Assembly: GCA_048537945.1 (NCBI GenBank)
Contig: CM108484.1
Coordinates: 19,009,034 to 19,073,033 of the forward strand
Direction: 5' to 3'
Origin: Mnemiopsis leidyi
Lineage: Eukaryota
Length of the DNA: 64,000 nucleotides
Shown: positions 4,682 to 49,105 of the stretch, piece after piece
Position numbering within the stretch: position 1 is the first letter of the stretch
How the letters are laid out: each line of letters begins with the position of its first letter
Made by a program: the position numbers and the translations under genes
Notes under the pieces: model-generated
What the model was told of the DNA's origin: nothing
Seen by the model: the letters and a program-made list of their open reading frames with translations, nothing else
Database searches by the model: none

Positions 4682-4682
4682 G

Positions 4683-12907: not shown

Positions 12908-14756
12908 TGAGTTTTTGTCATGTTTTTCGTTATACACGATACGAGTTCTTGTCATTTTTAACGTCTGCTTAACTCTAAATCGCAATCCACCATCTCTCAT
13001 TAAACTTAAACATTTAAACTGGAGCCTACTGAGGAATCCCTCTAAACTCAACACGGCTTGTCTAGATCTCGCCGTATCTTCAACTAAAGTTAAAGTAAAA
13101 CAACAAGAAGCCTCGCTAGAAACTCCACTCTGTCGTGTAGTATTATAGACGGCTGTTTTCTCGCTTTAAAACCACTAGACTTTCTCTCTACGTGAGGTGT
13201 CCTGTCTAGACGTCGGGCTGCTGCACTTATCTGTCTCCGTCCTAAGTCAGCTGGTCTCCTTTTGTAGTGTGACGTCATCTCGTGTGGTGTGACGTCATCT
13301 CGTGTGGTGTCATGGCAACTTGTATAGTGTGAACAACACCACGAACATGCTTTACGCCGGGATCTCACGATTTTCGAATTAACTCGGATCTGGGTTACTT
13401 TTTTTACAATTCTTTATTTAAACAGGAAGATATAATTCCTGTAATAATTCGCTATAAGTCAGGACTGGCCGGGACATAGTTATCGTAAAAACGCACGTCA
13501 GACCGCCTTGGTATTATGTATTAAGTCCAGTAATAATATTCAAATATTCACGGCAGAGTGTGACCGGTGAGAACACAAATTAAATGAAAGAAGGCCGCTA
13601 AGTCCGGAGGGAGATATGTAGACCGATAAAGCGGGGGTGTTCCCCCCACAACCTCTCACTCAGCTATCATCCTGACCAGCTTCCTTGTCACAGCTAACCT
13701 CCTCCCTTCTACAGTCAGTCTAGCTGCTAGTTCTCTGGGTGTAATTTAGTGGGGTCTGGTCAGTGGGGTCTGGGGTTAATGTGACACCACTGTAGACGTA
13801 ACACCACTTCCTGTGTTGTGAAATGACGTAACACATGTACAGGGGGACGCTAATTGGTAACGTAGGTTCCAATTTTCAGCTACAACCCAACCAGACGTAG
13901 AAAAAGTGGTATCGTGTTTCACGGTTCTCATTGGCCACATTTCTCACTCACCCTCTTTTCTCCTCCCCCCATTGGTGGTATTGGTCGTGCTCTCTCTCCC
14001 CATTGGTCAGATTATCTCGTGTTTCACTCCTTATTGGTTACCCACCCATCTAGACCTCCTTGACAGAATTTCCTTTAAATTAACTTTAAACAGGTCAGTC
14101 TACACAGTGCTTCAGGTGAGAATTCGGTGTCTCTAGCGTTTCAACACAGTGTCTATTATAAGAATAGGATGAGATCGATGTAGCCGTGGTGGAATTAGTT
14201 GTTTTGTCTTCGCGCGACTAAACAACGCGTGAATGGAGGAACTAAAGTTAACAGCTGTGTGCTGTGTAGTAACCAACAGAAATCCGACCTACTCAAACAC
14301 CCAGGAATATTGTATTTACTTATTTACTACTGAACTTTAAACCTTGAGCGTGAGTCTCACTTTCAGCTTTGGAGTGTTGCCAATGTGAACTTATTTTAAA
14401 AGTGCCTTACTCAACTAGCGAAATATCCGGGTTAATTTGGCCTGGTCTTAGTTGTATAAAAGTAGAAACACTGAGTAGAAAACGGTTACAAGACTTGTTT
14501 ACCTTCTGTACATTGGTCATTCCTGTTGGAACCAAACACCTAGGCTCACTTCACACTTCACCTCTAGCTGACGAAGATTAGTACACATGTTTCTTGAAAG
14601 CTTCTGTAACAACAAACTCATATCTATTTATGTCTATTAACCCCCCTCGAAAGACAAACACCTGTGTATAAGACTGTTTATGGATCAGAAATAAACAAAT
14701 TACGAAAACAATGTAATATCAATTTGTCACATCTTCTAATCTATTTCGATTTCCAC

Positions 14757-14851
14757 CTCTTTTACTCAATAGTGATTGGCTGATGAATCTTTTACTCAAT
14801 TCTGATTGGGTGATGAATATTTTACTCAATTCTGATTGGCTTATTACTCCC
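14757..14851 (+). repeat. 30-bp unit x3 (TTTTACTCAATTCTGATTGGCTGATGAATCT) abutting the receptor exon 10 acceptor
   Basis: Three tandem copies end at ...CTGATTGGCTTATTACTCCCAG|GTACATGG. Each carries a CCAAT-box reverse complement (ATTGG). Confidence 0.85.
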
Positions 14852-14853
14852 AG

Positions 14854-14978
14854 GTACATGGCTCCAGAAGTGCTAGACGACACATTAAACCCCCGCTCCT
14901 TTGACAGCTACTGTAAAGCTGACATCTACTCATTTGGACTTGTTCTATGGGAGATCGCTTCCAGAACTGTCAACGCAA
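14854..14978 (+). CDS. type I receptor exon 10 (P+1 loop YMAPEVLDD, kinase C-lobe)
   Basis: Acceptor ttactcccag| at 14852-14853. Translates (R)[41 protein letters not shown]. Donor GCAA|GTACGT at 14979 (phase 1). Confidence 0.9.
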
Positions 14979-16515
14979 GTACGTTCTTCTTCACTCCTAA
15001 TCAGTAATCTACTGCTTCTACATTTTTAGAGATGTATAATTCTTCTTTATAAACTAGAGCTATATTTCGTACTTTGTACTTGTAGAGCATCGTGCTTTGA
15101 TGTAATTTAATTGACGATGGAATTCAATTGAAGCTGAAATTCTTTCTTTTTCTGTACACGCAGCTTTATGCACATGTCACGTGTCAGTGTGTGTGTGTGC
15201 CAGGCAGATGACACAACAGATAGCGATACACTAGTATGTGTTAACAGTTACTCTCACAGCCTTGGTCCTTCCTTAACAGACTTATGGTATTTCATCATTG
15301 CTATAACGCCCATTACCTGGCCAAGGAGTTGCTGCCCCTGAATTTTATATTGTCCGATGATTTAATAAAAAGCCCAGACCTGCCATAGTTTAGACCGTAT
15401 TTTCTGGTCCGCTGTCCCCCCTGTTCATATTGGATGATCCTTAGCATCTCGTTCTTTGTGCTCATTGGTCAAGCCGTGCCACGAGGAGAAAATCTTACGT
15501 TTTCATTGGTCGGTTTTGAGAATATTCCTCCTTCAGACTAGAGAGGAAACCTGTTCCTAAAGTTCTAAGGATTTGTAGCATTGAGTATTGAAAGATAAGG
15601 AAAGAGCTGAGGTTACCCATATAGAAAACAGTGAGGTTTATTTGCCGGAATTAGAAGTCTTGGCTTCCCAATGCTCGGGGCCTGTAAATGGTGTTAATAA
15701 GCTAAGTCGCTTACTCCAGACGAACACGTGACCTTTACAAGCCAATCACCGAGCTCCTATACACTGAACCAACCAATCACCGAGCGTTAATTCTACCTCT
15801 GATACCTCCGCTGGAGTTCAGCAAAAATACCAACCTGAAATGCACACTATTTAAATGTATCCTTATAGAAGTCGTCTTGCATCACGACTGGGTTTCTGGC
15901 ATCACGTGACTTGATCCTGGCATTGTGATTGGTCGGTTGCTTTTAGCGTTTCTCTACTCGATTATACGCGTTTATACCCGTTTTGGTCACCTGTTCGAGC
16001 AAACGAATTTATCGGGACACTAAAATTTAATATGGGTTTTAATAAAATACATGGGTTTTAATAAGATGTATGTGCCTAGTTATAATAAAGAGAGATGGTG
16101 CACAATATGTTAATATAGAGGTAACTGTTTTAAGGTACGTAGTGCTCTGCAGAGACCATCAAATAGTTTTCATGCAATCACATAGTATACAACGTTTCAT
16201 TAACATATCATGTAATCCTAGCAATCCTACAAGAAGTATGTGGGTCTTGTCACGATACATTAGAGTTCATCAGTACAGATGTCACTGTAACACTTCTATT
16301 TCTGTAACGATACTGATTTCGGAACATTTTCAATATACCAATCCTTGATGATAATTATTCTTCAGAAATTGAGAACACTTATCCGCCGATTTTAAAGAGT
16401 AACTTACTCCGGTCGTTACCATGGATCACAGATTTAGTTATATAAAAGCAACAGCACCTTCACTTTGATCGGTAGAAAGTGAAAAATGAGAAGTTTTCTT
16501 CGTCTTAATGGCTAC

Positions 16516-16833
16516 ATCTATCAATGCATCCATGAACACTCGCAGTAAGAGTAACTAGAGTACTAATCCCGACACTTACACTATTAATGCATCCATGAAC
16601 ACTCGCAGTAAGAGTAACTAGAGTACTAATCCCGACACTTACACTATTAATGCATCCATGAACACTCGCAGTAAGAGTAACTAGAGTACTAATCCCGACA
16701 CTTACACTATTAATGCATCCATGAACACTCGCAGTAAGAGTAACTAGAGTACTAATCCCGACACTTACACTATTAATGCATCCATGAACACTCGCAGTAA
16801 GAGTAACTAGAGTACTAATCCCGACACTTACAG
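16516..16833 (+). repeat. 59-bp tandem array, 5.3 units, terminating exactly at the AG of the receptor exon 11 acceptor
   Basis: Unit CTATTAATGCATCCATGAACACTCGCAGTAAGAGTAACTAGAGTACTAATCCCGACACTTACA. Internal unit boundaries read ...CTTACA|C, and the final one reads ...CTTACAG|GTGCTCC. Confidence 0.9.
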
Positions 16834-16970
16834 GTGCTCCAATAGTAGACGAGTACAGACAGCCGTACCACGAGTACGTAGCTCCAGATCCCTCCGTCGA
16901 GGAGATGAGGAAAGTTGTCGTTGTAGACAGATGTCGTCCTGCTATCTCCAGACATTGGAACAACGATGAG
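16834..16970 (+). CDS. type I receptor exon 11 (kinase C-lobe)
   Basis: Acceptor cacttacag| at 16832-16833. Translates (S)[45 protein letters not shown], matching the vertebrate [45 protein letters not shown]. Donor GAG|GTTTGT at 16971 (phase 0). Confidence 0.9.
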
Positions 16971-17875
16971 GTTTGTACTGAGAAAGTGTTGTCGTTGTTG
17001 TTGCCGTTGTTGTGATTAGTGTGATTTGGGATAAACGGGATTTGTTTTGCAATTTCTTTGACTCTTTGAGATATTCTCTCGTTTAAGATTGGTCTGCTTA
17101 TTTATTTGTAGATAAAATGACGTGCCATTCACGACATGCCATTCATGTTTAATTAGTGACATGGTTTACAGATAGCTTTAGTAATCAGACCTATTAGAGA
17201 GTACTTCAGCAATTCAGACACATAATTGGACATGACTAACTTATCTTGATAAGTTGGGATCTTTTCATCTTTCGCTCACGTGGCACAATTTTTCATTTGT
17301 CCTTAGTCTGCCACTTGTGGCAATCAGAAAATATAAGTCTTAACTTTTCTTGTATGACATACAGATAAACAGACAGATAAACAGACAGATAAACAGACAC
17401 GCAAACATTTTCTTTTTGTCAAAATCTTCAACCATGCACAATGAGCAAATGCATTGTTTGAGTGTTGTCTATTTGAAATGCTATTGTGTCTAAAAACCTA
17501 GACTGACTTAAGTCATACTCTGTCAGCTGTAATCCTATCATCCGCTATGGCACGTTTTTGAATGACAAAAAGGGAGTGAGCCCAACCAATCCACCAGTCT
17601 GTAACTTGAGCTCCGTTTTTTCGCGTCCCTGCTGCCATGTGACAGTGTCACATTGGTGTGACACACAACACGACACCATGTGGCATCCTAATTTGTGGCA
17701 CTAATTTGCCTCAACCTTGCACACAACACGACCCCCACTACTGCTTTTCTATCCAAGGTGCATGACAACAGTTGAGCCCGGTTTTATTGCTTACTACTAA
17801 CTTATAAACATTACTAGACTTCCTACGGCTTATGTAGTGGGATTTCTAAACACTTTTAAAGTGCTTCACAAGTCC

Positions 17876-18094
<219 letters not shown>

Positions 18095-19006
18095 GCTATA
18101 CACACTCGTAAACCTGTACATATGTATCAAATATGGGTACGGATATCAGAGACAAAGTGAGTAGACCGACAAAGCCACATCAATGATGTGTGTGCATGTT
18201 GTCTGAGACGGCGGTAAATGGCAGGCATTAGGGAGGGTGGCAGTGAAGTCATTGTCTGGCCGGGTCCAGCCCACAGCCATCAGCGACCCTATAATTGCAC
18301 TCAGGGCCTTGACCGGGGATTAGTCACGGTCGAAGCGTAACAATATGCGCCATGGTTTGTGCGTAAAACCAGTCGCTCGATTCGTCCTCAGTTTAGACAT
18401 TAAGAAGCTCCTCTAATTTACTCAGATGGTGTCTTGTGCGACTGTCTATTTGAGAGACAAAAGAGTGTTATGTTTGGAACGCGCCGAAACACAGCTGCAT
18501 TGATGATGAGGAATTTTGCGCAGAAATTGCCGCGCGTTGCGCGCAATATTGTGCAGCAGACACGAGCCAGACTTGCAAATTTCAAGTTTCCTTGATGCGT
18601 CAGACAACCTATTACTCATTATTTCTACCCTTCTTCTTCACACAGTGTTCCTCACAATTTCCTACTAATGGCGACAATTCTCTTCTGATTAGTCCAAGAA
18701 ACTAGTTAAATCTGACATATAGGACGATTGTGATCCTTGTTTCATTTTAACTAACCCTAAAGACGAGAAAGTGTACAATAAAGGTCCTGTGCTCCGTGGA
18801 CATTTCACGGAAATTGTTTAACGACGTTAAGGGCTTGGACGTCTGCCAGGCAGTGTCACATGTCAGTCATGTGACCTTTATGTACATTCCCCAATTAAAC
18901 TTGTACTACGTGTAAAATGTACACTTATTTACCTTAGTGCTATACAGGGTGGTCAGTTTTTCTCTCATTAAACAGTTCTCTAAATTCTTATCGTAATATA
19001 TTTCAG

Positions 19007-23738: not shown

Positions 23739-23878
23739 CTGAAAGTGGGGGGTTGTTGGAGAGTGGAACAATGAACAGTCAAGTTGGAGAAGTTAAAACT
23801 TACGATTCATTCTGAGTTTATCTGCAATCATCCTCTCTTTAAACACAACAAATCATTCAGTATCTTGTGATAACTAAC

Positions 23879-24067
23879 CTGGTTGTCATGACCAGAAGTG
23901 GCGATCTTGGCGATATTTTCGGGACCAAGAGTCGAGACCATGTCCTTGAACTTGCTCGTCTCAATTTCTGACATTTTTAGGGCCTTCTCAACCTCTAGAC
24001 TGTTAGTAGCACTGATGTAGTCCAATTCTCCTTTACGAGCATCGTTAATTCTTTTGAGTTCGTTTTC
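23879..24067 (-). CDS. MVP: MVP exon 13: ENELKRINDARKGELDYISATNSLEVEKALKMSEIETSKFKDMVSTLGPENIAKIATSGHDNQ
   Basis: Acceptor tttctag| and donor CAG|GTTAGT. Matches the vertebrate [61 protein letters not shown]. Confidence 0.85.
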
Positions 24068-24246
24068 CTAGAAATTTTTTTAGAGAATAATGTATAATTA
24101 TTTAATCATCAATTTTAGTTATACAGTTGCAAATTTAGACGGTCAACAATGCAAATTGCAAACAAAACGAGATTTAATATCAATTTATTTGAAAACAAAA
24201 AGTGCTCCAGAGTCCAGAGTTCAGTCTTCAGATGTTTTTTACTCAC

Positions 24247-24490
24247 AGCTTCGATGTTTTGAGCCTCGGCTTTAAGTTGAGCTTGCTCGACAGCAGCTTG
24301 TCCCTCGATCTTGAGAGATTCAGCTCTGGATTGAGCCTCAGCCTTGGCTTGACCAGTGCTCTCTACAGCAGCAGACAGAGACTGCAGTTTCAACAGTTCT
24401 GTCCTGGCTTTTTCTGCTTCAGCTTCGTCGTGAATCTTCTGTCGCTCGAGTTTTCCTTTAGCTTGTTGCTCCAGGCGCTCAGCTTCGTGC
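24247..24490 (-). CDS. MVP: MVP exon 12 (C-terminal coiled coil): (R)[81 protein letters not shown]
   Basis: Acceptor catttccag| and donor GCT|GTGAGT. Matches the vertebrate [84 protein letters not shown]. Confidence 0.9.
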
Positions 24491-24892
24491 CTGGAAATGT
24501 TAAAAGAATGGAAAGGCTTATTTGAGATATCCAGCTCATTGAAAATGTGCAAAAGCAATTCACAAAATGAATCAGTGGAATGAGCGATATTGACTATTGG
24601 GAACGGCTCGAGACACTGAAACTGATGTCCTTACAAATAAGGAGAGGAAGATATTTGATCATACATCTGTGGAAGATGCAATGTTGAATGACAAGGCTCT
24701 GAACAACATCGATCTAAAATTCTATAGTTCCTCTAGACTTGGGATTAGAATATCCATCCACAAGTTCAGTCATCAGGCACAGAGGTTATACTCAACGGAG
24801 TATGACGACTCATTCGGGATTAAAGCTGCCGATCATGGAACCTCCTACCAAAACATGTCAACAGCAACACATCATTAGAGCGCTTAAAAGGT

Positions 24893-25193
24893 GCACTTGG
24901 CAGTGGCGTAACGTTGTAGGTCTAGCCAATATGGCGCCCCTCGGCGATGAAAATGCGCCCCTAAGTGGCGCCCCTGGTGTAAGGGCTTACTGGGAGCAAA
25001 TTGTGAAAAAATGGCAGAAAAATCTAAATAAAAAGTGAAGTTATTAAACCAAACACGCGATTTTGCTAGTCGCGCAGTTGATCTTGCAAAATTGTCCCAT
25101 ATTTCTATGACGATTTGGCGCCCCCTTATGACGGCGCCCCCCGGCGTAGCCGGGGTGGCCGGGGCATTGTTACGCCGCTGGCACTTGGCGATT
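24893..25193. mobile_element. small GC-rich inverted-repeat element with GGCGCCCC motifs, in an MVP intron
   Basis: CACTTGGCAGTGGCGTAACG at 24893 is an imperfect inverted match of GTTACGCCGCTGGCACTTGG at about 25170. The interior holds at least five copies of TGGCGCCCC/CGGCGCCCC, which is compositionally foreign to the AT-rich surroundings. Confidence 0.3.
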
Positions 25194-25832
25194 TTATGAG
25201 TCAGTTTTCGGATAGGCCGCCGGTGCATTCCTCCAGACAGCAACTCGCTACTTGAATGGCTTGCTAGGGGGAAGTGGATTTTGCGCTGACGGCAGGTCCG
25301 CACTTGTCTCACTCTCACGTTGTTATCGCCGCCTCCGGACGCTGCCGCAATGCCGCTAAGCAGCAGCAGGGGCAGATAACGTCTGGCGAGTCCGTACGTG
25401 AAATATATTATATAAGCGCGTCCATCAAAATATCAGGCGCGCCTTCCGCTCATAATTCAAGCTTGCATTAACATAAACATTTCACAAAAATTTTCCTTGC
25501 GATTAGGATTAACCTAGGCGGTTTGCGATACCCTTACTTCAACTGTTGACACGAAGCTGCTTTAAGGCTGAATTAAGGCCGTTTAAAACACTAAGATCCG
25601 AGATCAGAGTACCTAAGTCCACGTGAAAGCAATAAAACACGTGTGAGAGGCCAGGTGCGAAACTAAGCAATATGATACGGCCCGGCTCCCGAACAAAAAC
25701 GATTTAGATTTACAGAAGTGTGAAGGGAGCTTGGTGATCTCATACAACATCTTAGTAGTATTGTATAGCTGTATGTAACTGGAACTGGAACCCGCTAATT
25801 AGACTTTAACACGCTTAAGGAAGATAACCCAC

Positions 25833-25990
25833 CTGGCTGAAGCCTCCTGAGAGTTTGTTGTAATCTCTATAGCAAGCTGTACAGACTTCTGTAGGGAATC
25901 TCTGGTCCTCTGGTCTACTGGCTCCACTGACTGTATGTCCACATTTGTTATCACCAGACGGTTTGCGGCAAACTTGAAGTTTTCCTTCAC
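25833..25990 (-). CDS. MVP: MVP exon 11: [52 protein letters not shown]
   Basis: Acceptor ctctttaag| and donor CCAG|GTGGGT (phase 2). Matches the vertebrate [41 protein letters not shown]. Confidence 0.85.
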
Positions 25991-26168
25991 CTTAAAGAGA
26001 TTGAATGTCTGTAGAGCGTTAGAGTTTGGGGAAGAAAAGAAGGGAAGTTTAAGTGAGAATCAGTATATAAGAACTAAGAATTTTGTAAGCTAAAAAGTGC
26101 AAAGAAAAAGGATAAAGAGTAAAAGGTGAAAATAGCAATATAATGAGCGCTTATTGTAGAATAAAAAC

Positions 26169-26222
26169 CTTCATGTTTTCGTCGAGTCCAAATACTGAAG
26201 TTCTGATAATCCTTGCAGAATT
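26169..26222 (-). CDS. MVP: MVP exon 10 (micro-exon): NSARIIRTSVFGLDENMK
   Basis: Acceptor tttcttcag| and donor AAG|GTTTTT. Matches the vertebrate NSARIIRTAVFGFETSEAK. This exon is missing from the ORF track because it is only 54 nt, and it is needed to restore colinearity. Confidence 0.75.
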
Positions 26223-26343
26223 CTGAAGAAATTGCTTGTTAAATGTTTATATTGAAAAATAAATCAAAATTATTACCACTAAAATCAATGTTTATCTAAG
26301 AAGTGTCGATATTAAAGTTTCCGGTAATATGTAAGTATCTTAC

Positions 26344-26683
26344 CCTGTGGAAGTCGTCGAAAGGCACTGCAGCTACAGCACCTCTGATGCGAGAGGCAAG
26401 GGCTTTACACGCATCGCCAACAAAATCAGGAACAGCGAACAGAGCGGACGCGTGCTCCGCATTATCCTGAGTATAATCGAAGTGCCAGTTGTAGGAAAGC
26501 TGGAGCGCGAGACGCGCGTGGTCGCTTGTCTCCACTGTGATGATGTCTGTCATGAAGTCAGGACCAAGAAGGAGACAGAGAGAGCGAATACAGTTGGGAC
26601 GTTTGGGTTTCCCGCCGGACAGGGAAAGTTGGGTGAAGTGTTCGTCTGGAGCCAACATCACTAGGTCGGGTCCAAACACAACC
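26344..26683 (-). CDS. MVP: MVP exon 9: (R)[113 protein letters not shown]
   Basis: Acceptor ctattcag| whose AG is at plus 26684-26685. Donor AGG|GTAAGA. Near-colinear with the vertebrate [71 protein letters not shown]...FDDFHK. Confidence 0.9.
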
Positions 26684-26830
26684 CTGAATAGGGAACAGGG
26701 ATTAAACTATAGATCTCAATCACTAGGTCGGGTCCAAACACAACCCTAAATAGGGAACAGGGATTAACGTATAGTTCTCAATCACTAGGTCAGGTCGAAA
26801 CACAACCCTAAATAGAGAATAGGGATTAAA
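26650..26830 (-). repeat. 62-bp triplication that copies the acceptor and first 28 nt of MVP exon 9
   Basis: The genuine junction (minus) is attcag|GGTTGTGTTTGGACCCGACCTAGTGATG. Two more copies lie upstream in the intron with tttag|GGTTGTGTTTGGACCCGACCTAGTGATTGAGA and tttag|GGTTGTGTTTCGACCTGACCTAGTGATTGAGA. Confidence 0.9.
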
Positions 26831-27041
26831 CTATAGTTCTTAATCCAAATTTTAAATAGTGATGTATTGTTATAGTTATTTGTTAAATGAAGAAATGATT
26901 TAACTATACTAAATACAGAAATAGTAAAAGCAACATTTATTTAGTCAGCAATCTTACATAACTATTTTCAACACATATTTAAAAGATTTGAGCAACACAA
27001 ATTTAAACACAAATTTTAGATTTTAGCAAGTTCTATCTCAC

Positions 27042-27280
27042 CTAGCCTTCTTAGCCTTGTAGTCGTAGATCTGCGCAGCTGCATTGTGCGGAACTCTGTA
27101 AGACACAACCATGTGTTTGACACGAGACTTTGAGTCGCCCTTGTTGTGTGCGCGCGCAGTCCTGTCAGCCAAAGGGTCAACCTCAGCAGAAAGAAGTTTC
27201 TCGATCTGCTCTGGTAGAGGCTTATCCCACAGTTCCTCGTCTTGGTTAAGGACGTAGGTCTGTCCTACTACTGCTCTTAC
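27042..27280 (-). CDS. MVP: MVP exon 8: [79 protein letters not shown]
   Basis: Acceptor cccag| and donor GCTAG|GTGAGA (phase 2). Matches the vertebrate [81 protein letters not shown]. Confidence 0.85.
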
Positions 27281-27830
27281 CTGGGTAAGTTGGAAACTTG
27301 GTTATTGTGGGCAGCCGACATATCTAACTCTTTACAGCTTTACACAGTTTATACATTTATACAATTTATACATTTATACATTCTGCAATCTTGGCAGTGT
27401 GATCTACACCAGCTACACAGAAAGAAAATAATCTGATTGGGAGTAACAAAATTTCATTTATACAGTATACACTCCACACACTATATCTACATTCTACACA
27501 TTAAGTCTCAGCTCCTTGGGCAACGGAATGATTGGAATTTTCATTAGTAGCTATGGACGCTACATTGTTGTGTGTGATATCATGTTTGCATTCTTCCGAC
27601 AAGGTAAACTTTGAATGTAACGCTTTTTGAGTTGAAATATGAGTTAGATTAACTATGGATAGATATAAATATAGATTAAATAGGATTAATAATTTACGTT
27701 AGTTGAACTGTGGGAAAGGAAAGATGGTTAATTTAATGGCTGTTCACTGTTCAGTATTCAGAAGTAAAAACCTGCAATAAGAAAATATCTAAACCATAGT
27801 TTAAATAACCCTAACAGACAAAAAAACAAC

Positions 27831-27980
27831 CTTTCCAGTTTTGATGTCCCTGACGTAGATACCCTCGTTCTCATCGAGAGGCATGGCCTTCCTCCTGTCA
27901 ATAATCTCCATCTCTACAGTTGGGATGAACTCGCACGCTCCTCTTACCATCCACAAGTTTCCGGGCTGTCTCTCTACTCC
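27831..27980 (-). CDS. MVP: MVP exon 7: [50 protein letters not shown]
   Basis: Acceptor cgatttcag| and donor AAG|GTTGTT. Matches the vertebrate [42 protein letters not shown]. Confidence 0.85.
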
Positions 27981-28862
27981 CTGAAATCGAAAACTTTGTC
28001 AGAACGTAATTCGTTTTTTTGTGAGACAGTGATCTTCTTGTGTATCTGACTTACAATGAGATAGTGCACCATACCATTGCGGTGGTATTTCTCGGCAAGT
28101 TCCTTCTCAATTCCAAATTTAAAATTGAGTTGTTGTTAAATACGTAAGTTCGAACGACTTTCTTATTAAAAGTAGTTTCTAAGGCGTTCAAAGGAAACTA
28201 GGATAAACAACTTTTATCGCAATAACTCAATAAGGAAATGGGATGTAGCCGAGGTCTGACCAGGATTGTTTTATGGAAGCCAAATTATGAATGTAAATCT
28301 ACGTCACATAACATTGATACATAGCGCTGACTGATTAGGCTTCCCATTCTCAAGGGACTTGTACAGTGTATACTGTACATACAACTGCAAGCCCCAAGAT
28401 AAAGTTTACATAATAATACATATCATTATACTATCTTTTCGAAGATTTTGTTAAAGATAAAGGTACCAGGTATATTGTGTAAAGGTACCAGGTATATTGT
28501 GTAAACTGTTTCCGACCCAGAAGATGCATCAAATATAATTCGTACACAGTAGGGTTGAGAAGTTATCACAACACCCAACAACAATAATTTAATGATTATT
28601 TATTACTAGTATATCATATTTTAGGTCTTAGCGGGGTTGGCTACTAACAGTCAATTTGACTGACTTGCCAATCCCTCACAGCAATTTTGAAGCTCCACAT
28701 GTTATTTTTATGATTATTTATGTATTGCTGTGTAAATTTTAATCAAAATTCAAAAAATTTCTAGCTCTTAATCTGACTCGATAACATATTATTCTGCACT
28801 GTTATCTCAAGAGACGAAGTGTATGGGAACACTTTGTAGGTATTACACAGACCACAGGTGAC

Positions 28863-29693
28863 AGGATGTTGAATACCTTACAAGACATTTTTATAACGTA
28901 CGAAATGCGACGGTTTTCCCGAAATTTCGCCATATTTTCGGACCGCCAAAATTTCGGTCGTCGTAATAGAATCCGTCGCATTATTTTTAGTTTATTCCAA
29001 TAATTGTGGCGTCATCGATTCATTTTGTTCTTAAAAAGTTAGTGATATGATGGTGGGACAAATAAACAAAATATTCCATGATGAATTGAATGTCAAGTAA
29101 CAAGTTTTAAATTAACAATAAATTACATTCCTGTGCTAACATAAACGTTTTATAAGAGAATAAGTCAAGATAAACAATTTAATGCCAAACTCAATAAGTC
29201 ATGCGATGCAGATATACCGTCATTTATCAGTGGACTAAAATTTAGATTTTGAAATACTAAAATCAGCCAGTTATATACTAACCAGTTATCATCTTATTAC
29301 TCAAGTCAAAGGTTACTATCCATCGGGAAACTAACGATGTGTCTCTTCAACATGATCGGTATATGCGTGAGCCGTAAACGTGAAGCGGATAAAGGACGGA
29401 AGAGTATGCTGAGTCCCACAGTTGGTAACCGTGGGACATATTCCGTTAGAAGTTAGTAAATATTGTCACTATTTCACTATGTGCCACGGTGGCGAAATTA
29501 ATGGAGTTGTTGATTTTACCGATATTTAGAAAATTTTGAATTTACTTTGTGTCAGAAAACAAAATGATAAAAATAGCCTTATTTTCTGTGACGTCCGAAA
29601 TGTGACGGTTTTCATTCAATTTCGCCATATTTTCGGACCGCCAAAATTTCGGTCGTCGCAAATTGGTCCGCCACAAAAATGTCTTGTAAGGTA
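28863..29693. mobile_element. putative non-autonomous DNA element in an MVP intron (17-bp terminal inverted repeat plus 70-bp subterminal direct repeats)
   Basis: ACCTTACAAGACATTTTT at 28863 pairs with AAAAATGTCTTGTAAGGT at about 29676. Inside each end sits a copy of TTCGCCATATTTTCGGACCGCCAAAATTTCGGTCGTCG. Confidence 0.45.
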
Positions 29694-30306
29694 TTAAAGG
29701 TAAGAACTTTGTAGATTTAAGTTGTTGTGATGGCAACCAGAACCCCACAATGTAATGAGAGAGTTACTAATGACATTTCAGTACATCGGCCGATATACTC
29801 TACCTTCTAGAACATTCCATAGTTCCTGAAACAATGCTCTTACACAGACATTACACGCAGTTCATGAATTCTGTTCATCAGCAGGAGTGTGAGGTGTGTA
29901 ACACAGATCAGTTTGTTGTCAACTGTGTGGGTTGATTGTCGTTGTCATGGCAACGATCATTAGCTAAATGGAGGCCTGCATGAAAAGCAGTCTGAATTCA
30001 TGTACTCACTGCAATGTAACGGAGAAATCAGCAAAATAAGAGAATCTGCAGACATTACGTAAAGCCAATAAGATATTTCATGTTTTAACCTAGCCAGGTT
30101 GTTTGTGAATACAACAGATGTGCCTGTCCTTAAGTTGCTTTTACTTATTTTTCATAATTCAAAGATAAGTCCTCATCTGACGCAATTGTAACACATTTGT
30201 TAATTACTTGAGCTGCTGTTCAATTAGCCATAAACAGCTGAATCACAAAAGTAGGTCTTTATAATAAGTATATTCATTCAGATCACTACATATCAGGGAA
30301 ACTCAC

Positions 30307-30573
30307 ATTATCAGTGAAAGACAAGACCGCCTTGACGATGATAGCCTCGTCCTCCCCTAGAATGTGAACATCCTGAATTCCAGCCTCCAAACTCTCTCCG
30401 GGCTGGAGGAAGAAACTCTTCTCTCCCTTGATGAGCTTCCTCTGTCCCAGCTTGTTCTTGCCGTCGTCTCCCATGGGGTCCAGGATCACACAGTACTGTC
30501 GGTTTGTCAGGGTCGAGATGTTCACAACTTGGATCACGTTCTCGTGTACGTCCGGGATAAACGCTTCTGAGTC
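30307..30573 (-). CDS. MVP: MVP exon 6: [89 protein letters not shown]
   Basis: Acceptor cacctacag| and donor AAT|GTGAGT. Matches the vertebrate [76 protein letters not shown]. Confidence 0.85.
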
Positions 30574-30746
30574 CTGTAGGTGGATGGATTTATGAAGGAG
30601 CAGCCATGTTACGGCATTCTAGTAAAGTTTTTGAGAGATTTGAGTAAGCAAGATTTTAAAAGATATCTTATCACAGTAGAGAAAATTGAGATAAGAAGAA
30701 ATGACTAAAGACAATATCTACATTCTAGAACTGCTGCAGTCCAAAC

Positions 30747-30959
30747 CTTGATAGTGATAAGCCACTGTTCTCCGCTTTTCCTGTTCACTCCAAACCTATC
30801 TTTGTAGCTCTGGAGCGCCTCGAGGTGCAGGGCGATGTTCTCTGTCAGGATGTACGCGGAGATGAACCCGACAACTTGCTCGTACGCGCCGGGGAGGTAC
30901 GCGCCGGTCTTGTTGACCAGCCATTCCTCGCCACAAACACGGTCTTTGCCTTGCTGGTC
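30747..30959 (-). CDS. MVP: MVP exon 5: DQQGKDRVCGEEWLVNKTGAYLPGAYEQVVGFISAYILTENIALHLEALQSYKDRFGVNRKSGEQWLITIK
   Basis: Acceptor cctgcag| and donor AAG|GTTTGG. Matches the vertebrate [71 protein letters not shown]. Confidence 0.85.
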
Positions 30960-31087
30960 CTGCAGGTAATATGTACAGGAATGTGGAGTGTGAGTGTTGG
31001 GATTAGTGTCAGACACCGCGGTCATTATAAAAGAATTTACGTACACGCTGTGCAGCGATAGTATTTGGTTTACAAGAGAGTACATAC

Positions 31088-31191
31088 CTTGCAGGCTTTA
31101 AGAGCTCGGAGTCTGAGGGCCTGGTTTGGACTGATAATGCTGGCTCTGATTGTCTCTACAACTTCCACAAACTTGTGAGGGAGGTAGGTTC
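31088..31191 (-). CDS. MVP: MVP exon 4: (G)[34 protein letters not shown]
   Basis: Acceptor tatcttcag| whose AG is at plus 31192-31193. Donor AAG|GTATGT. Matches the vertebrate [34 protein letters not shown]. The 6.6 kb minisatellite begins 10 bp upstream of this acceptor. Confidence 0.8.
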
Positions 31192-31200
31192 CTGAAGATA

Positions 31201-34200
31201 GGTAACAGTTAGCTCTACCTCACTGCTCTAGCTCTATTCTGTTGTCATGTACTAACTACTTAGTTACCTAGCTCTACCTCACTGCTCTAGCTCTATTCTG
31301 TTGTCATGTACTGACTACTAAGTTACCTAGCTCTACCTCACTGCTCTAGCTCTATTCTGTTGTCATGTACTGACTACTTAGTTAGCTAGCTCTACCTCAC
31401 TGCTCTAGCTCTATTCTGTTATCATGTACTGACTTCTTAGTTACCTAGCTCTACCTCACTGCTCTAGCTCTATTCTGTTGTCATGTACTGGCTGCTTAGT
31501 TAGCTAGCTCTACCTCACTGCTCTAGCTCTATTCTGTTATCATGTACTGACTACTTAGGTAGCTAGCTCTACCTCACTGCTCTAGCTCTATTCTGTTGTC
31601 ATGTACTGACTACTTAGTTACCTAGCTCTACCTCACTGCTCTAGCTCTATTCTGTTGTCATGTACTGACTACTTAGTTACCTAGCTCTACCTCACTGCTC
31701 TAGCTCTATTTTGTTATCATGTACTGACTACTTAGTTAGCTAGCTCTACCTCACTGCTCTAGCTCTATTCTGTTATCATGTACTGACTACTTAGTTAGCT
31801 AGCTCTACCTCACTGCTCTAGCTCTATTCTGTTATCATGTACTGACTACTTAGTTAGCTAGCTCTACCTCACTGCTCTAGCTCTATTCTGTTGTCATGTA
31901 CTGACTACTTAGTTACCTAGCTCTACCTCACTGCTCTAGCTCTATTCTGTTATCATGTACTGACTACTTAGTTAGCTAGCTCTACCTCACTTCTCTAGCT
32001 CTATTCTGTTGTCATGTACTGACTACTTAGTTAGCTAGCTCTACCTCACTGCTCTAGCTCTATTCTGTTGTCATGTACTGACTACTTAGTTACCTAGCTC
32101 TACCTCACTGCTCTAGCTCTATTCTATTATCATGTACTAACTACTTAGTTAGCTAGCTCTACCTCACTGCTCTAGCTCTATTCTGTTGTCATGTACTGAC
32201 TACTTAGTTACCTAGCTCTACCTCACTGCTCTAGCTCTATTCTGTTATCATGTAGTGACTACTTAGTTACCTAGCTCTACCTCACTGCTCTAGCTCTATT
32301 CTGTTATCATGTACTGACTACTTAGTTACCTAGCTCTACCTCACTGCTCTAGCTCTATTCTGTTATCATGTAGTGACTACTTAGTTACCTAGCTCTACCT
32401 CACTGCTCTAGCTCTATTCTGTTATCATGTACTGACTACTTAGTTACCTAGCTCTACCTCACTGCTCTAGCTCTATTCTGTTATCATGTACTGATTACTT
32501 AGTTAGCTAGCTCTACCTCACTGCTCTAGCTCTATTCTGTTATCATGTACTGACTACTTAGTTACCTAGCTCTACCTCACTGCTCTAGCTCTATTCTGTT
32601 GTCATGTACTGACTACTTAGTTAGCTAGCTCTACCTCACTGCTCTAGCTCTATTCTGTTATCATGTACTGACTACTTAGTTAGCTAGCTCTACCTCACTG
32701 CTCTAGCTCTATTCTGTTATCATGTACTGACTACTTAGTTAAATAGCTCTACCTCACTGCTCTAGCTCTATTCTTTTATCATGTACTGACTACTTAGTTA
32801 GCTAGCTCTACCTCACTGCTCTAGCTCTATTATGTTATCATGTACTGACTACTTAGTTACCTAGCTCTACCTCACTGCTCTAGCTCTATTCTATTATCAT
32901 GTACAGACTACTTAGTTAGCTAGCTCTACCTCACTGCTCTAGCTCTATTCTGTTGTCATGTACTGACTACTTAGTTAGCTAGCTCTACCTCACTGCTCTA
33001 GCTCTATTCTGTTGTCATGTACTGACTACTTCGTTACCTAGCTCTACCTCACTGCTCTAGCTCTATTCTGTTGTCATGTACTGACTACTTAGTTAGCTAG
33101 CTCTACCTCACTGCTCTAGCTCTATTCTGTTGTCATGTACTGACTACTTAGTTAGCTAGCTCTACCTCACTGCTCTAGCTCTATTCTGTTGTCATGTACT
33201 GACTACTTAGTTAGCTAGCTCTACCTCACTGCTCTAGCTCTATTCTGTTGTCATGTACTGACTACTTAGTTAGCTAGCTCTACCTCACTGCTCTAGCTCT
33301 ATTCTGTTGTCATGTACTGACTACTAAGTTAGCTAGCTCTACCTCACTGCTCTAGCTCTATTCTGTTGTCATGTACTGACTACTTAGTTACCTAGCTCTA
33401 CCTCACTGCTCTAGCTCTATTCTGTTATCATGTACTGACTACTTAGTTAGCTAGCTCTACCTCACTGCTCTAGCTCTATTCTGTTGTCATGTACTAACTA
33501 CTTAGTTAGCTAGCTCTACCTCACTGCTCTAGCTCTATTCTGTTGTCATGTACTGACTACTAAGTTAGCTAGCTCTACCTCACTGCTCTAGCTCTATTCT
33601 GTTGTCATGTACTGACTACTTAGTTACCTAGCTCTACCTCACTGCTCTAGCTCTATTCTGTTGTCATGTACTAACTACTTAGTTACCTAGCTCTACCTCA
33701 CTGCTCTAGCTCTATTCTGTTGTCATGTACTGACTACTTAGTTACCTAGCTCTACCTCACTGCTCTAGCTCTATTCTGTTGTCATGTACTAACTACTTAG
33801 TTACCTAGCTCTACCTCACTGCTCTAGCTCTATTCTGTTGTCATGTACTGACTACTTAGTTAGCTAGCTCTACCTCACTGCTCTAGCTCTATTCTGTTGT
33901 CATGTACTGACTACTTAGTTAGCTAGCTCTACCTCACTGCTCTAGCTCTATTCTGTTGTCATGTACTGACTACTTAGTTAGCTAGCTCTACCTCACTGCT
34001 CTAGCTCTATTCTGTTGTCATGTACTGACTACTAAGTTAGCTAGCTCTACCTCACTGCTCTAGCTCTATTCTGTTGTCATGTACTGACTACTTAGTTACC
34101 TAGCTCTACCTCACTGCTCTAGCTCTATTCTGTTATCATGTACTGACTACTTAGTTACCTAGCTCTACCTCACTGCTCTAGCTCTATTCTGTTGTCATGT

Positions 34201-37200
34201 ACTAACTACTTAGTTAGCTAGCTCTACCTCACTGCTCTAGCTCTATTCTGTTGTCATGTACTGACTACTAAGTTAGCTAGCTCTACCTCACTGCTCTAGC
34301 TCTATTCTGTTGTCATGTACTGACTAATTAGTTAGCTAGCTCTACCTCACTGCTCTAGCTCTATTCTGTTGTCATGTACTGACTACTTCGTTACCTAGCT
34401 CTACCTCACTGCTCTAGCTCTATTCTGTTGTCATGTACTGACTACTTAGTTAGCTAGCTCTACCTCACTGCTCTAGCTCTATTCTGTTGTCATGTACTGA
34501 CTACTTAGTTACCTAGCTCTACCTCACTGCTCTAGCTCTATTCTATTATCATGTACTAACTACTTAGTTAGCTAGCTCTACCTCACTGCTCTAGCTCTAT
34601 TCTGTTGTCATGTACTGACTACTTAGTTACCTAGCTCTACCTCACTGCTCTAGCTCTATTCTGTTATCATGTAGTGACTACTTAGTTACCTAGCTCTACC
34701 TCACTGCTCTAGCTCTATTCTGTTATCATGTACTGACTACTTAGTTACCTAGCTCTACCTCACTGCTCTAGCTCTATTCTGTTATCATGTAGTGACTACT
34801 TAGTTACCTAGCTCTACCTCACTGCTCTAGCTCTATTCTGTTATCATGTACTGACTACTTAGTTACCTAGCTCTACCTCACTGCTCTAGCTCTATTCTGT
34901 TATCATGTACTGATTACTTAGTTAGCTAGCTCTACCTCACTGCTCTAGCTCTATTCTGTTATCATGTACTGACTACTTAGTTACCTAGCTCTACCTCACT
35001 GCTCTAGCTCTATTCTGTTGTCATGTACTGACTACTTAGTTAGCTAGCTCTACCTCACTGCTCTAGCTCTATTCTGTTATCATGTACTGACTACTTAGTT
35101 AAATAGCTCTACCTCACTGCTCTAGCTCTATTCTTTTATCATGTACTGACTACTTAGTTAGCTAGCTCTACCTCACTGCTCTAGCTCTATTATGTTATCA
35201 TGTACTGACTACTTAGTTAGCTAGCTCTACCTCACTGCTCTAGCTCTATTCTATTATCATGTACAGACTACTTAGTTAGCTAGCTCTACCTCACTGCTCT
35301 AGCTCTATTCTGTTGTCATGTACTGACTACTTAGTTAGCTAGCTCTACCTCACTGCTCTAGCTCTATTCTGTTGTCATGTACTGACTACTTCGTTACCTA
35401 GCTCTACCTCACTGCTCTAGCTCTATTCTGTTGTCATGTACTGACTACTTAGTTAGCTAGCTCTACCTCACTGCTCTAGCTCTATTCTGTTGTCATGTAC
35501 TGACTACTTAGTTAGCTAGCTCTACCTCACTGCTCTAGCTCTATTCTGTTGTCATGTACTGACTACTTAGTTAGCTAGCTCTACCTCACTGCTCTAGCTC
35601 TATTCTGTTGTCATGTACTGACTACTTAGTTAGCTAGCTCTACCTCACTGCTCTAGCTCTATTCTGTTGTCATGTACTGACTACTTAGTTACCTAGCTCT
35701 ACCTCACTGCTCTAGCTCTATTCTGTTATCATGTACTGACTACTTAGTTACCTAGCTCTACCTCACTGCTCTAGCTCTATTCTGTTGTCATGTACTAACT
35801 ACTTAGTTAGCTAGCTCTACCTCACTGCTCTAGCTCTATTCTGTTGTCATGTACTGACTACTAAGTTAGCTAGCTCTACCTCACTGCTCTAGCTCTATTC
35901 TGTTGTCATGTACTGACTACTTAGTTAGCTAGCTCTACCTCACTGCTCTAGCTCTATTCTGTTGTCATGTACTGACTACTTCGTTACCTAGCTCTACCTC
36001 ACTGCTCTAGCTCTATTCTGTTGTCATGTACTGACTACTTAGTTACCTAGCTCTACCTCACTGCTCTAGCTCTATTCTGTTGTCATGTACTGACTACTTA
36101 GTTACCTAGCTCTACCTCACTGCTCTAGCTCTATTCTGTTGTCATGTACTAACTACTTAGTTAGCTAGCTCTACCTCACTGCTCTAGCTCTATTCTATTA
36201 TCATGTACTAACTACTTAGTAACCTAGCTCTACCTCACTGCTCTAGCTCTATTCTGTTATCATGTACTGACTACTTAGTTACCTAGCTCTACCTCACTGC
36301 TCTAGCTCTATTCTGTTGTCATGTACTAACTACTTCGTTAGCTAGCTCTACCTCACTGCTCTAGCTCTATTCTGTTGTCATGTACTGACTACTTAGCTAG
36401 CTCTACCTCACTGCTCTAGCTTTATTCTGTTGTCATGTACTGACTACTTAGTTAGCTAGCTCTACCTCACTGCTCTAGCTCTATTCTGTTATCATGTACT
36501 AACTACTTAGTTAACTAGCTCTACCTCACTGCTCTAGCTCTATTCTGTTATCATGTACTGACTACTTAGCTAGCTCTACCTCACTGCTCTAGCTCTATTC
36601 TGTTGTCATGTACTAACTACTTGGTTAGTTAGCTCTACCTCACTGCTCTAGCTCTATTCTGTTGTCATGTACTGACTACTTAGTTACCTAGCTCTACCTC
36701 ACTGCTCTAGCTTTATTCTGTTGTCATGTACTGACTACTTAGTTACCTAGCTCTACCTCACTGCTCTAGCTCTATTCTGTTGTCATGTACTGACTACTTA
36801 GTTACCTAGCTCTACCTCACTGCTCTAGCTCTATTCTGTTATCATGTACTGACTACTTAGTTAGCTAGCTCTACCTCACTGCTCTAGCTCTATTCTGTTG
36901 TCATGTACTGACTACTTAGTTACCTAGCTCTACCTCACTGCTCTAGCTCTATTCTGTTATCATGTACTAACTACTTAGTTAGTTAGCTCTACCTCACTGC
37001 TCTAGCTCTATTCTGTTATCATGTACTAACTACTTAGTTAGCTAGCTCTACCTCACTGCTCTAGCTCTATTCTGTTTCATGTACTGACTACTTTGTTACC
37101 TAGCACTACCTCACTGCTCTAGCTCTATTCTGTTGTCATGTACTGACTTCTTAGTTACCTAGCTCTACCTCACTGCTCTAGCTCTATTCTGTTGTCATGT

Positions 37201-37865
37201 ACTGACTACTTAGTTACCTAGCTCTACCTCACTGCTCTAGCTCTATTCTGTTATCATGTACTAACTACTTAGTTAGTTAGCTCTACCTCACTGCTCTAGC
37301 TCTATTCTGTTATCATGTACTAACTACTTAGTTAGCCAGCTCTACCTCACTGCTCTAGCTCTATTCTGTTTCATGTACTGACTACTTTGTTACCTAGCTC
37401 TACCTCACTGCTCTAGCTCTATTCTGTTATCATGTACTGACTACTTAGTTAGCTAGCTCTACCTCACTGCTCTAGCTCTATTCTGTTGTCATGTACTGAC
37501 TACTTAGTTAGCTAGCTCTACCTCACTGCTCTAGCTCTATTCTGTTGTCATGTACTGACTACTTAGTTACCTAGCTCTACCTCACTGCTCTAGTTCTATT
37601 CTGTTGTCATGTACTGACTACTTCGTTACCTAGCTCTACCTCACTGCTCTAGCTATATTCTATTATCATGTACTAACTACTTCGTTAGCTAGCTCTACCT
37701 CACTGCTCTAGCTCTATTCTGTTGTCATGTACTGACTACTTAGTTAGCTAGCTCTACCTCACTGCTCTAGCTCTATTCTGTTGTCATGTACTGACTACTT
37801 AGTTAGCTAGCTCTACCTCACTGCTCTAGCTCTATTCTGTTGTCATGTACTGACTACTTAGTTAC
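31201..37865. repeat. 60-bp minisatellite, about 110 units (AGTTACCTAGCTCTACCTCACTGCTCTAGCTCTATTCTGTTGTCATGTACTGACTACTT) inside an MVP intron
   Basis: Near-identical units with variants such as G/A in TGTTG/ATCATG and TTACC/TTAGC. The array starts 10 bp from the acceptor of MVP exon 4. Confidence 0.95.
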
Positions 37866-38566
37866 TGGTGTACAAACTGGAAATTGTAGCGTGGAAACTT
37901 TGTGGGAAGTCATGCTTCTTAGTTGTATGAATAGAGTTTTTAAAAGGAACCTTGCGATATTGCAGCAGTAGACTATACGACGAATCTCATGCTTGTGATT
38001 ATTTCGTCAACTGCTGATCATGGGCAGAGAAACAAGTTTTGACGTCGACCGAATACGGGATATACACACACTTGATTATTGAAGTGTTAAATATGCTTTT
38101 ACTCCATGTTTCAATTTAACTAAGGTTATTTTAAAGGGAGTATGGTTAATGAAGCAGGAAGCGTATTATCCTGTTTTCGACATGTTCGCATTAAACCATC
38201 AAAAGTACAGAGCATCCACCGAAATTTGCTCAGTATTGGCAAACAGCCAATATGATTGTGGAGTGAAGACATCTCATAAACAAGAGTAATACCGTTTTAA
38301 GAACAAGATGTGAATTGCGATGAGATCATCGCAGCACAAAACAATTAGATCACTGTTTTAACACTTCGATGAGATCATCATGAGATCACTCAGCTTCTCG
38401 GCGGTGTGGAACACTCATATAACGTAGTGTGACGTCACAATCACACACAGCAAGAAAAGGCACGTTATTCTGAGCCGTTCAACTTGAGCACATTACTAGT
38501 TAAATGTATTGTGTTTAAGATTAACGAATGTATAAACACGCGAAGAAAGCAATTTCTGAAACCCAC

Positions 38567-38771
38567 CAGGTCCGGTGAAGAGCCACTCATCATGAGCCCA
38601 TCGCTTAGTTCCATCGGTTTCAGTGAAATCTGCACTAGCGCGAAGGCGGAGTGCCGTGTTGGTGGGAACGGCGCGCAGTTTCGTGACCTTCACATCCAGT
38701 GTCTCTCCCGGATACAAGGGGAAAGGCTCTTGTGTTAGTCTGACCTCTTGGTCGGCGTGCAGCAGTTTAGC
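38567..38771 (-). CDS. MVP: MVP exon 3: [68 protein letters not shown](G)
   Basis: Acceptor tttcccag| and donor CTG|GTGGGT (phase 1). Matches the vertebrate [69 protein letters not shown]. Confidence 0.85.
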
Positions 38772-39784
38772 CTGGGAAAAGAGAGAGTTTAATGTGCGTG
38801 TAGGTTTGTGTGTGTAGCTGAGTGTAAAGCAGGTAATGTGCTAATATTTTGTCACGGTCACCCTCTCCCATATGTACACAGGAAATATTTATTGATAAAC
38901 TTCCTCTTGTAAAAATTGCACTCGGGTAAGTCTATACATTTATATTCTGCGAAGCACGCATTAAGTTAGACACGGTGTGAATATTTCACGGAATCAGTAA
39001 TTCACACGTAGAATTATTCCATACTGCTTTCAATAGAATGTATATTCTTAGCAAAATCTTACTTATTGAGGAGTTCTGAGCGTAATCAAATCTCAGATTA
39101 CACACAATTCTGAAAGGTCGACAATAAAAATTATCCTTCCTGGCCGAAGTAAAAAATTGCTTTGGTAGGATGATAAGGTTGATGCCTGACATTCTGATAG
39201 GGTGTTTCTTTCTTCGTTAGAGCCAAAGAGAATAAACAAATTGAATTTGCTGTCCAGCAACTATCTTTGAGTTCCTTATCTTATCTTTGTAAGAGTCTCG
39301 TTACAACTCTGGATTCTTTTCCTTTATACAGGTCGTATTACCGGTATTCAAGCCATTCCTTACATGGTACATTTTAGATCGAGTTGTACAGTCTCCAACG
39401 ACAGCTAAAAAGAGCCTTTTTTAAAGGCTAGTAACCTAAGCTGCGTGTACATATGTATACAATGACCAGGAAAAAGGGCTACTTGCTACCGTACTGCTAG
39501 CAGCTCCACAATTATGTAATTACCACAGCATTCCATTACAGAGAAATAGAGTGACCTAGGAACGTGCAAATTTGTTTTTAATTGTCCTAGATTAATTACA
39601 AAGTTACAAGATATGGTCGGACTGTGTATCTTACTGTGTAACAGTTCTTACAGTCGGGACCGTGACAGCCAGACAGACAATCAAATATTAGCTACAATGT
39701 AGAGATAGCAGGGTAATGTATGCAAATAATTAAACCTAAAAGGATCATGCTCCTTCAGAAAATTAACAAATAGTCGGTACGGAC

Positions 39785-48448: not shown

Positions 48449-48476
48449 AACTCTCTCTCTTTCTCTATCTCTCTCT

Positions 48477-48563
<87 letters not shown>

Positions 48564-48954: not shown

Positions 48955-49105
<151 letters not shown>

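Follow-up and report, generated by a model that had tools for sequence, protein, structure and literature searches.

How does a gene accommodate three tandem copies of one of its own 3′ splice sites, each followed by the start of the same exon, and which of the three is used? The question is raised by a 62-bp array at the boundary between intron 8 and exon 9 of the major vault protein (MVP) gene of the ctenophore Mnemiopsis leidyi, located in a 64,000-nucleotide stretch of DNA (hereafter the window) that was analyzed as a whole. Tandem repeats across exon-intron boundaries have been called “mirages” in amphioxus, where they occur in Adh3, troponin C, the globin genes BflGb6/9 and PGBD5 (PMC3087553, PMC3902484), and our definition of a mirage is taken from the same two papers. 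We consider it likely that the MVP array is a lineage-specific minisatellite of this type, and that splicing to its two upstream TAG pseudo-acceptors is rare or absent.

The gene had been named as MVP and the exon as exon 9 in an earlier reading made from the sequence alone, and both assignments were borne out. A tblastn search with a vertebrate MVP probe located a complete gene that runs on the minus strand between about 40384 and 23631, and stitching the hits at GT-AG sites gave a model of 14 exons in which all introns are GT-AG. With the exon 11 acceptor set at 25990, the spliced model is identical to the M. leidyi protein KAL5258009.1 (845/845). Although an initial protein search with MVP returned only fragments, a full-length search found marine transcript-derived proteins of 95, 93, 85, 83 and 82% identity, and KAL5258009.1 sits in the 90% cluster of the best full-length match. 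Named animals, including Branchiostoma, are 63–67% identical to the MVP in the window. An amphioxus origin of the window is ruled out, since Branchiostoma MVP shares 64% identity with the encoded protein as against 100% for the M. leidyi protein. A search of the 64 kb against Rfam gave no family at its gathering score. The 13 MVP donors include several that are degenerate after the GT (GTTTGG, GTTGTT, GTTTTT and GTCCGT).

Exon 8 (239 nt, 27042..27280, minus strand) ends in ...AAGAAGGCTAG/gtgaga, where the slash marks a splice junction or its counterpart in a repeat unit. It is followed on the same strand by the GT-AG intron 8 (358 nt, phase 2, 26684..27041), and both are placed by the spliced model and a cDNA contig, L011. 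Exon 9 (340 nt, 26344..26683, minus strand), which encodes ...FDDFHR, is placed by the model, by KAL5258009.1 and by nucleotides 322–663 of L011. Across the intron 8/exon 9 boundary, TRF reports an array on the minus strand at 26657..26845 with a period of 62 bp, 3.0 copies, 91% matches and a score of 315. A repeat search placed three head-to-tail copies in register, with spacings of 62 and 62, which show 100% (26657-26718), 94% (26719-26780) and 89% (26781-26842) identity to the reference copy. In transcript sense each 62-nt unit consists of 35 nt from the 3′ end of intron 8 followed by 27 nt from the start of exon 9. Two of the units, 124 nt in total, thus lie within the 358-nt intron.

We number the copies in the direction of transcription. 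Copy 1, the distal decoy (26781..26842), reads taagaactatagtttaatccctattctctatttag/GGTTGTGTTTCGACCTGACCTAGTGAT, with its TAG at 26810-26808 and its exon-like part starting at 26807. Copy 2, the middle decoy (26719..26780), reads tgagaactatacgttaatccctgttccctatttag/GGTTGTGTTTGGACCCGACCTAGTGAT, with its TAG at 26748-26746 and its exon-like part starting at 26745. Both were delimited by reading the sequence and by the repeat search, and copy 3, the functional one (26657..26718), by L011 and the annotated protein. Copy 3 reads tgagatctatagtttaatccctgttccctattcag/GGTTGTGTTTGGACCCGACCTAGTGAT and continues into GTTGGCTCCAGAC; its intronic part (26718-26684) ends in a CAG at 26686-26684, and its exonic part (26683-26657) consists of the 27 nt with which exon 9 opens. 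The intronic parts end in ...ccctattcag/GGTTGTGTTTGGACCCGACCTAGTGAT in copy 3, ...ccctatttag/GGTTGTGTTTGGACCCGACCTAGTGAT in copy 2 and ...ctctatttag/GGTTGTGTTTCGACCTGACCTAGTGAT in copy 1, and the AG is kept in both upstream copies. The sequence-only reading had therefore correctly recognized two extra 62-bp copies with valid AGs upstream of the acceptor; the interval that it gave (26650-26830) falls slightly short of the array at the distal end.

The copies are 6–11% divergent from one another, and the divergence is graded. Between copies 2 and 3 there are 4 differences over 62 positions, every one of them intronic, and the exon-like part of copy 2 equals the real exon 9 start at 27 of 27 bases. 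Copy 1 differs from either of the others at 7 of 62 positions, 2 of which fall within the 27 exon-like bases, and the translation that had been offered for the decoys needs amending for this copy, which would read VVFRPDLVIE. A pyrimidine tract of 86% is found in all three units. So is TTAAT, a branch-point-like motif by the general metazoan branch-site consensus (yUnAy), which precedes the real AG by about 19 nt (26701..26705, minus strand) and at the equal offset in the two decoy units (26763-26767 and 26825-26829). The 35-nt intronic half of the unit has no further match in the 64-kb window at ≤3 mismatches, and none was obtained in 100 shuffles; the array is therefore local, and chance is excluded as its source. 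The same search bears on the idea that the unit belongs to a dispersed mobile element that carried an acceptor and was inserted beside exon 9. The window is indeed repeat-rich, with pieces of dispersed repeats elsewhere, but 27 nt of every unit are MVP exon 9 itself and the copies are strictly head-to-tail at a spacing of 62 nt. A dispersed-repeat origin of the unit is effectively refuted within the window, and we give the mobile-element explanation almost no credence.

It is evident from the transcripts at hand that the copy next to exon 9 is the one that is spliced. KAL5258009.1 reads YKAKKAR/ at the junction, a reading that requires exon 8 to be spliced to the exon-proximal acceptor, 26683. 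L011 is a spliced cDNA from the same species (a Logan contig from run SRR26183979, 1467 nt), covers exons 7–14 at 98.5–100% nucleotide identity, and reads ...AAGAAGGCTAG/GGTTGTGTTTGGACCCGACCTAGTGATGCTGGC..., a direct join of exon 8 to exon 9 at 26683 without an insert of 62 or 124 nt. Five transcripts of related ctenophores show KAK[KR]AR/V[VATE]FGPDL across the same junction. The proximal junction alone is present in L011 and KAL5258009.1, and no decoy junction is found in either. The concern that the junction had been misassigned to the wrong copy is thereby answered in the negative. On this limited evidence, which for M. leidyi consists of a single cDNA contig, from an assembler of the kind that reports the major isoforms, and a single deposited gene model, the dominant MVP mRNA uses the exon-proximal CAG alone. 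The suggestion in the sequence-only reading that the decoys could compete as acceptors finds no support in these transcripts. L011 differs from the window by 3 SNPs in exon 8 and 5 in exon 9, while exons 7 and 10–14 are 100% identical; a divergent haplotype block around the array could account for this distribution.

What would follow if a decoy were used can be computed. Joining exon 8 to 26745 adds 62 nt and joining it to 26807 adds 124 nt, in agreement with the insertions anticipated by the sequence-only reading. That reading had also described the exon sequence in the decoys as in-frame, which holds for about nine codons; the frame is lost afterwards, because neither 62 nor 124 is a multiple of 3, and it is shifted in both products. 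Both stop at codon 509 of the 848-codon open reading frame, with five introns downstream, and the +124 product ends in ...KKARVVFRPDLVIENYTLIPVPYLGLCLDPT followed by the stop. By the general exon-junction rule, a stop codon upstream of introns leads to nonsense-mediated decay (NMD), and decoy-spliced RNAs would be expected to be NMD substrates. Low-level use of the decoys is compatible with the steady-state cDNA, since NMD would remove the products.

The same computation opens the possibility that the decoys are functional “poison” acceptors, whose frameshifted NMD substrates tune MVP output by regulated unproductive splicing. Both decoys keep the AG, the 86% pyrimidine tract and TTAAT, the 27 exon-like nucleotides of copy 2 are unchanged, and splicing to either decoy gives an early stop with introns downstream. 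We nevertheless regard such regulation as unlikely: there is no decoy-spliced transcript in the available cDNA or annotation, and the features of the decoy sites, of related genomes and of the neighboring gene described below also argue against it.

The sole consistent difference between the real site and the two decoys is position −3, which is C (CAG) in the former and T (TAG) in both of the latter. Among the 19 confirmed acceptors in the window, whose positions follow from cDNA or strong homology, CAG occurs 17 times and TAG and AAG once each. At three related ctenophore genomic loci the orthologous acceptor reads CAG, and the T in the decoys is therefore the derived state. We scored the sites with a position weight matrix (PWM) built leave-one-out from the 19 local sites, which is small and noisy and gives a direction rather than a measurement: the real site scores 3.4 bits, copy 2 scores −0.7 and copy 1 scores −2.0. 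Both decoys fall below all 19 confirmed sites, and the median of 283 background intronic AGs is −3.4. Two points speak for use of the decoys: TAG is an effective competitor of CAG in other animals, and the order of transcription, in which the upstream sites come first, would by itself favor them. Because the decoys are weaker at −3 and lie farther from the signals that define exon 9, they can be expected to be silent or rarely used. Masking of the decoys by RNA structure was also considered and rejected, as intron 8 with its flanks folds with z = −1.6 and without convincing sequestration. With regard to poison acceptors, the derived C>T change at −3 in the decoys and the decay of copy 1, which affects its tract as well as its exon-like part, are what neutral sequence would show.

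Related ctenophore contigs (L001, L002 and L003/L004) keep the position and phase of intron 8 and have a single CAG acceptor without a duplicated exon start. Exon 9 in L001 is 93% identical in protein to that in the window, and the 85 nt of intron visible in this contig suffice to exclude one adjacent unit. The single acceptor in the relatives indicates that the triplication arose in the Mnemiopsis lineage. The absence of the array from three relatives also means that the decoys are not a conserved regulatory device.

An array known from one genomic copy of M. leidyi could in principle have been produced by the assembly, with a single junction expanded to three by the long-read assembler or by haplotype merging. 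Exact look-ups of the exon 9 reading frame and of KAL5258009.1 yielded no second genomic copy, and scans of JGI metagenome contigs with the exon-like 27-mer of the array and with a SNP-free 31-mer from exon 9 gave no hits in a collection without M. leidyi sequence at this locus; these zeros carry no information on the array. Tandem repeats are error-prone in assemblies, and one amphioxus mirage was mis-assembled in the draft genome (PMC3087553). Artefactual expansions are near-identical, however, whereas the copies here differ at 4–7 of 62 positions in a pattern unlike read error, and the same graded divergence is seen in many other arrays in the window. The graded divergence thus speaks against an assembly expansion, which we judge very unlikely, and indicates an event old enough for substitutions to have gathered.

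The conserved intron position is equally relevant to whether the array marks the beginnings of a new intron or exon, in which the exon-like part of a decoy would become a new mini-exon or the intron would be shifted, by mirage intron gain or by a Rogers-type duplication. A model of this kind was proposed for the amphioxus globin mirages (PMC3087553), donors in the window are degenerate (GTTTGG, GTTGTT, GTTTTT), and CTA/GTGATT in each unit is conceivable as a donor. Such a reading would need a 22-nt exon and a 40-nt intron, but 22 is not a multiple of 3, the extra residues occur in no transcript or protein examined, and the intron is at the same position as in the relatives. A 22-nt mini-exon with a 40-nt intron is ruled out by frame, intron size and absence from transcripts, and we hold intron or exon creation at this array to be highly improbable.

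Returning to the mirage-type minisatellite, its history may be pictured as follows. A 62-bp segment spanning the boundary would have undergone two tandem duplications, for which slippage or unequal exchange at a GAT microhomology of 3 nt is the probable cause. GAT stands immediately before copy 1 (26843..26845, minus strand; context ..GTGAT/t[ag]agaac, the slash here marking the start of the unit) and forms the last 3 nt of every unit, and TRF counts these 3 nt as part of the array. Tandem duplications of the slippage type typically show microhomology of this kind. The copy contiguous with the remainder of exon 9 would still have yielded a normal mRNA, and the duplication would have been tolerated because this geometry guarantees normal mRNA from the exon-proximal copy. 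The two upstream units would thereby have turned intronic, each with 27 nt of former exon sequence behind a complete-looking acceptor module of TTAAT branch-like motif, pyrimidine tract and AG. The proximal site may be preferred for its stronger CAG and its nearness to the definition signals of exon 9, and any mis-spliced RNA would probably be cleared by NMD.

We then asked whether the MVP array stands alone. The neighboring gene, on the plus strand, encodes a TGF-beta type I-like receptor kinase and carries several arrays at or near its splice junctions. The largest is an 83-bp array of about 21 copies at 11143-12925 (region 11116-12925), which spans a junction on the donor side and repeats the last 21 nt of the exon (..HRVGTKR) together with the donor, CACAGAGTCGGCACCAAGAG/GTGGGG, i.e., AAGAG/GTGGGG. 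Counting the real donor at 11135, there are 21 copies of this junction, 18 of them exact, and 17 of the 20 decoy donors are exact. This array is a donor-side mirage far larger than that in MVP. A 29-bp array of 11 copies (5685-6007, plus strand) repeats CCCAG/GTAA through the real acceptor at 6004, and nine copies keep CAG/GTAA; CAG/GTAAAGT in this array also resembles a near-consensus donor. A 63-bp array of 5 copies (16513-16832, plus strand) stops one base ahead of the G in an acceptor AG. Another receptor array, of 30 bp, ends 12 nt short of an acceptor, and an 11-bp receptor array starts 6 nt past a donor. In MVP itself, a 59-bp array of 113 copies in intron 3 (6.6 kb, 31210-37864) ends 18 nt before exon 4; CTAAC branch-like motifs were noticed in this array. 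The arrays near junctions described here include those at 4688-4747 and 14758-14841. The statement in the sequence-only reading that the receptor decoys had lost the AG was imprecise, as the 63-bp array stops one base short of that G, and splice dinucleotides are kept in two other receptor arrays. Its proposal that exonic sequence is copied into introns holds and forms part of a wider pattern across the arrays in the window.

This pattern is quantitative. We considered the 15 TRF arrays of period ≥7 and score ≥60 within the modelled introns of both genes (3813-19006 and 23739-40246), with uniform placement of each array within its own intron as the null. Seven of the 15 intronic minisatellites lie ≤20 nt from an intron end, against 0.69 expected (P = 5×10−7, Poisson-binomial), and the excess also holds at 10, 30 and 50 nt. 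These seven include three arrays that span a junction, with units of 83, 29 and 62 nt, all of which are 2 mod 3 in length, so that use of their decoys would always shift the frame. The occurrence of like arrays in a neighboring gene suggests a mutational process rather than a gene-specific regulation of MVP by poison acceptors. At two places in the receptor gene model, homology alone leaves two candidate sites on the plus strand: acceptor 16834 (TTACAG/GT) versus 16846 (CAATAG/TA), and donor 6166 versus 6207, which give GTSG/YKP and a 14-residue insertion, respectively.

Elsewhere in the window we noticed a large palindrome (~46100-54077 / ~56053-63213), with two arms of ~8 kb, a spacer of ~2 kb and blocks that are 93–98% complementary. 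The arms carry mirrored fields of a 54-bp minisatellite and runs of (CT)n/(AC)n. The palindrome is either a real inverted duplication or a foldback or haplotype mis-join. In an older M. leidyi MVP entry of 859 aa (P0243, MetaClust UPI0004EA63A5), the 11 residues NGVVNMAFFET are inserted after ..TETDGT; the insertion site is at ~38606 in MVP exon 3, where the window lacks them. Nine of ten residues (GVVNMAYFET) are encoded in both arms of the palindrome, at 53301-53330 (minus strand) and 56462-56491 (plus strand). This resemblance suggests that the extra residues may come from a piece of a dispersed repeat that was inserted, or wrongly modelled, in a different haplotype or assembly.

Taken alone, the MVP array is a small structural variant that is probably neutral. 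The strong local association between minisatellites and splice junctions in M. leidyi is a more interesting lead than the MVP array itself. It is possible, although we put this forward tentatively, that across the genome of M. leidyi, and perhaps of ctenophores generally, intronic minisatellites tend to arise at splice junctions or to grow from them. If so, the tendency would have evolved independently of amphioxus, and a mutational process would be coupled to exon-intron boundaries, for example through breaks or stalled forks where splicing takes place co-transcriptionally, or through polar growth from boundary hotspots. There would then be thousands of natural tandem decoy sites, which could serve as a test bed for exon-proximal site choice. 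Two adjacent genes in the window already offer natural experiments on the choice of splice sites, in the form of acceptors and donors repeated in near-identical tandem copies (3, 9 and 21). The clustering of arrays hints at a mutational mechanism linked to boundaries, and it points to a route by which exon sequence can be intronized and introns lengthened. In practice, tandem decoy sites in ctenophore genomes are a pitfall for gene prediction and for the alignment of RNA-seq reads. As for ctenophore repeats in general, 13% of the Hormiphora genome is tandem repeats, according to a ctenophore genome paper, and in the literature that we searched we found no report of junction-spanning or junction-clustered minisatellites in ctenophores.

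Several known systems can be compared with the MVP array. NAGNAG acceptors lie 3 nt apart, share one branch point and one pyrimidine tract, and give in-frame isoforms. The MVP array resembles them in having closely spaced competing AGs at a single exon start; a NAGNAG arrangement is nonetheless ruled out, as the sites are 62 nt apart, have their own tracts, and shift the frame by +62 or +124. Rogers in 1989 and Gao and Lynch in 2009 reportedly described internal duplications that span splice junctions, with intron gain by duplication of AGGT. The MVP array is likewise a small intragenic tandem duplication that includes a splice signal, in which the redundant copy is intronized and the frame is rescued by the proximal site. 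It differs in that the duplication lies within a pre-existing conserved intron, which it lengthens by 124 nt. Intron gain of the Rogers type is ruled out, since the intron position is common to three related loci and no new intron is present in the cDNA.

A closer parallel is the 37-bp VNTR in intron 7 of human F7, which spans the exon 7 donor and whose pseudo-sites, although capable of function in principle, normally stay silent (Borensztajn et al. 2006, PMC1557585). The exon-proximal 5′ splice site is chosen there by 5′-to-3′ scanning from the exon (PMC1557585). The direct counterpart of the F7 VNTR in the window is the 83-bp × 21 donor array of the receptor gene. In MVP the arrangement is found in mirror image, on the acceptor side, with an exon-side element that spans the junction and near-identical pseudo-sites in the intron. 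Whereas 5′ sites are duplicated in F7, MVP duplicates a 3′ site and the chosen copy is transcribed last, so that another logic of selection is needed, such as exon definition or scanning from the branch point to the AG.

The amphioxus mirages provide the best structural match. Their units range from 10 to about 160 bp, they are found at either boundary, and AG or GT is kept in many units (PMC3087553, PMC3902484). RT-PCR showed normal splicing, haplotypes differ in copy number, and somatic instability has been recorded (PMC3087553, PMC3902484). The MVP array has every structural feature of a mirage that we tested: a head-to-tail unit of minisatellite size (62 bp, 3.0 copies), a unit that spans the boundary and so duplicates the splice signal together with exon sequence (35 + 27 nt), and, on the limited evidence of L011 and KAL5258009.1, a regular mRNA without the duplicated sites. 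As in the window, there are several mirages per genome region, at both types of boundary, and normal mRNA is made. The window differs in also having a quantitative excess of arrays that merely abut intron ends. All described mirages come from cephalochordates, a circumstance of the host rather than of structure, and the host of the MVP array is a ctenophore, which implies an independent origin. Boundary-spanning “mirage” minisatellites are thus no peculiarity of amphioxus but are present in a non-bilaterian animal as well; such arrays had already been described in amphioxus and in human F7, a precedent that the sequence-only reading had missed, and what is new here is the ctenophore host.
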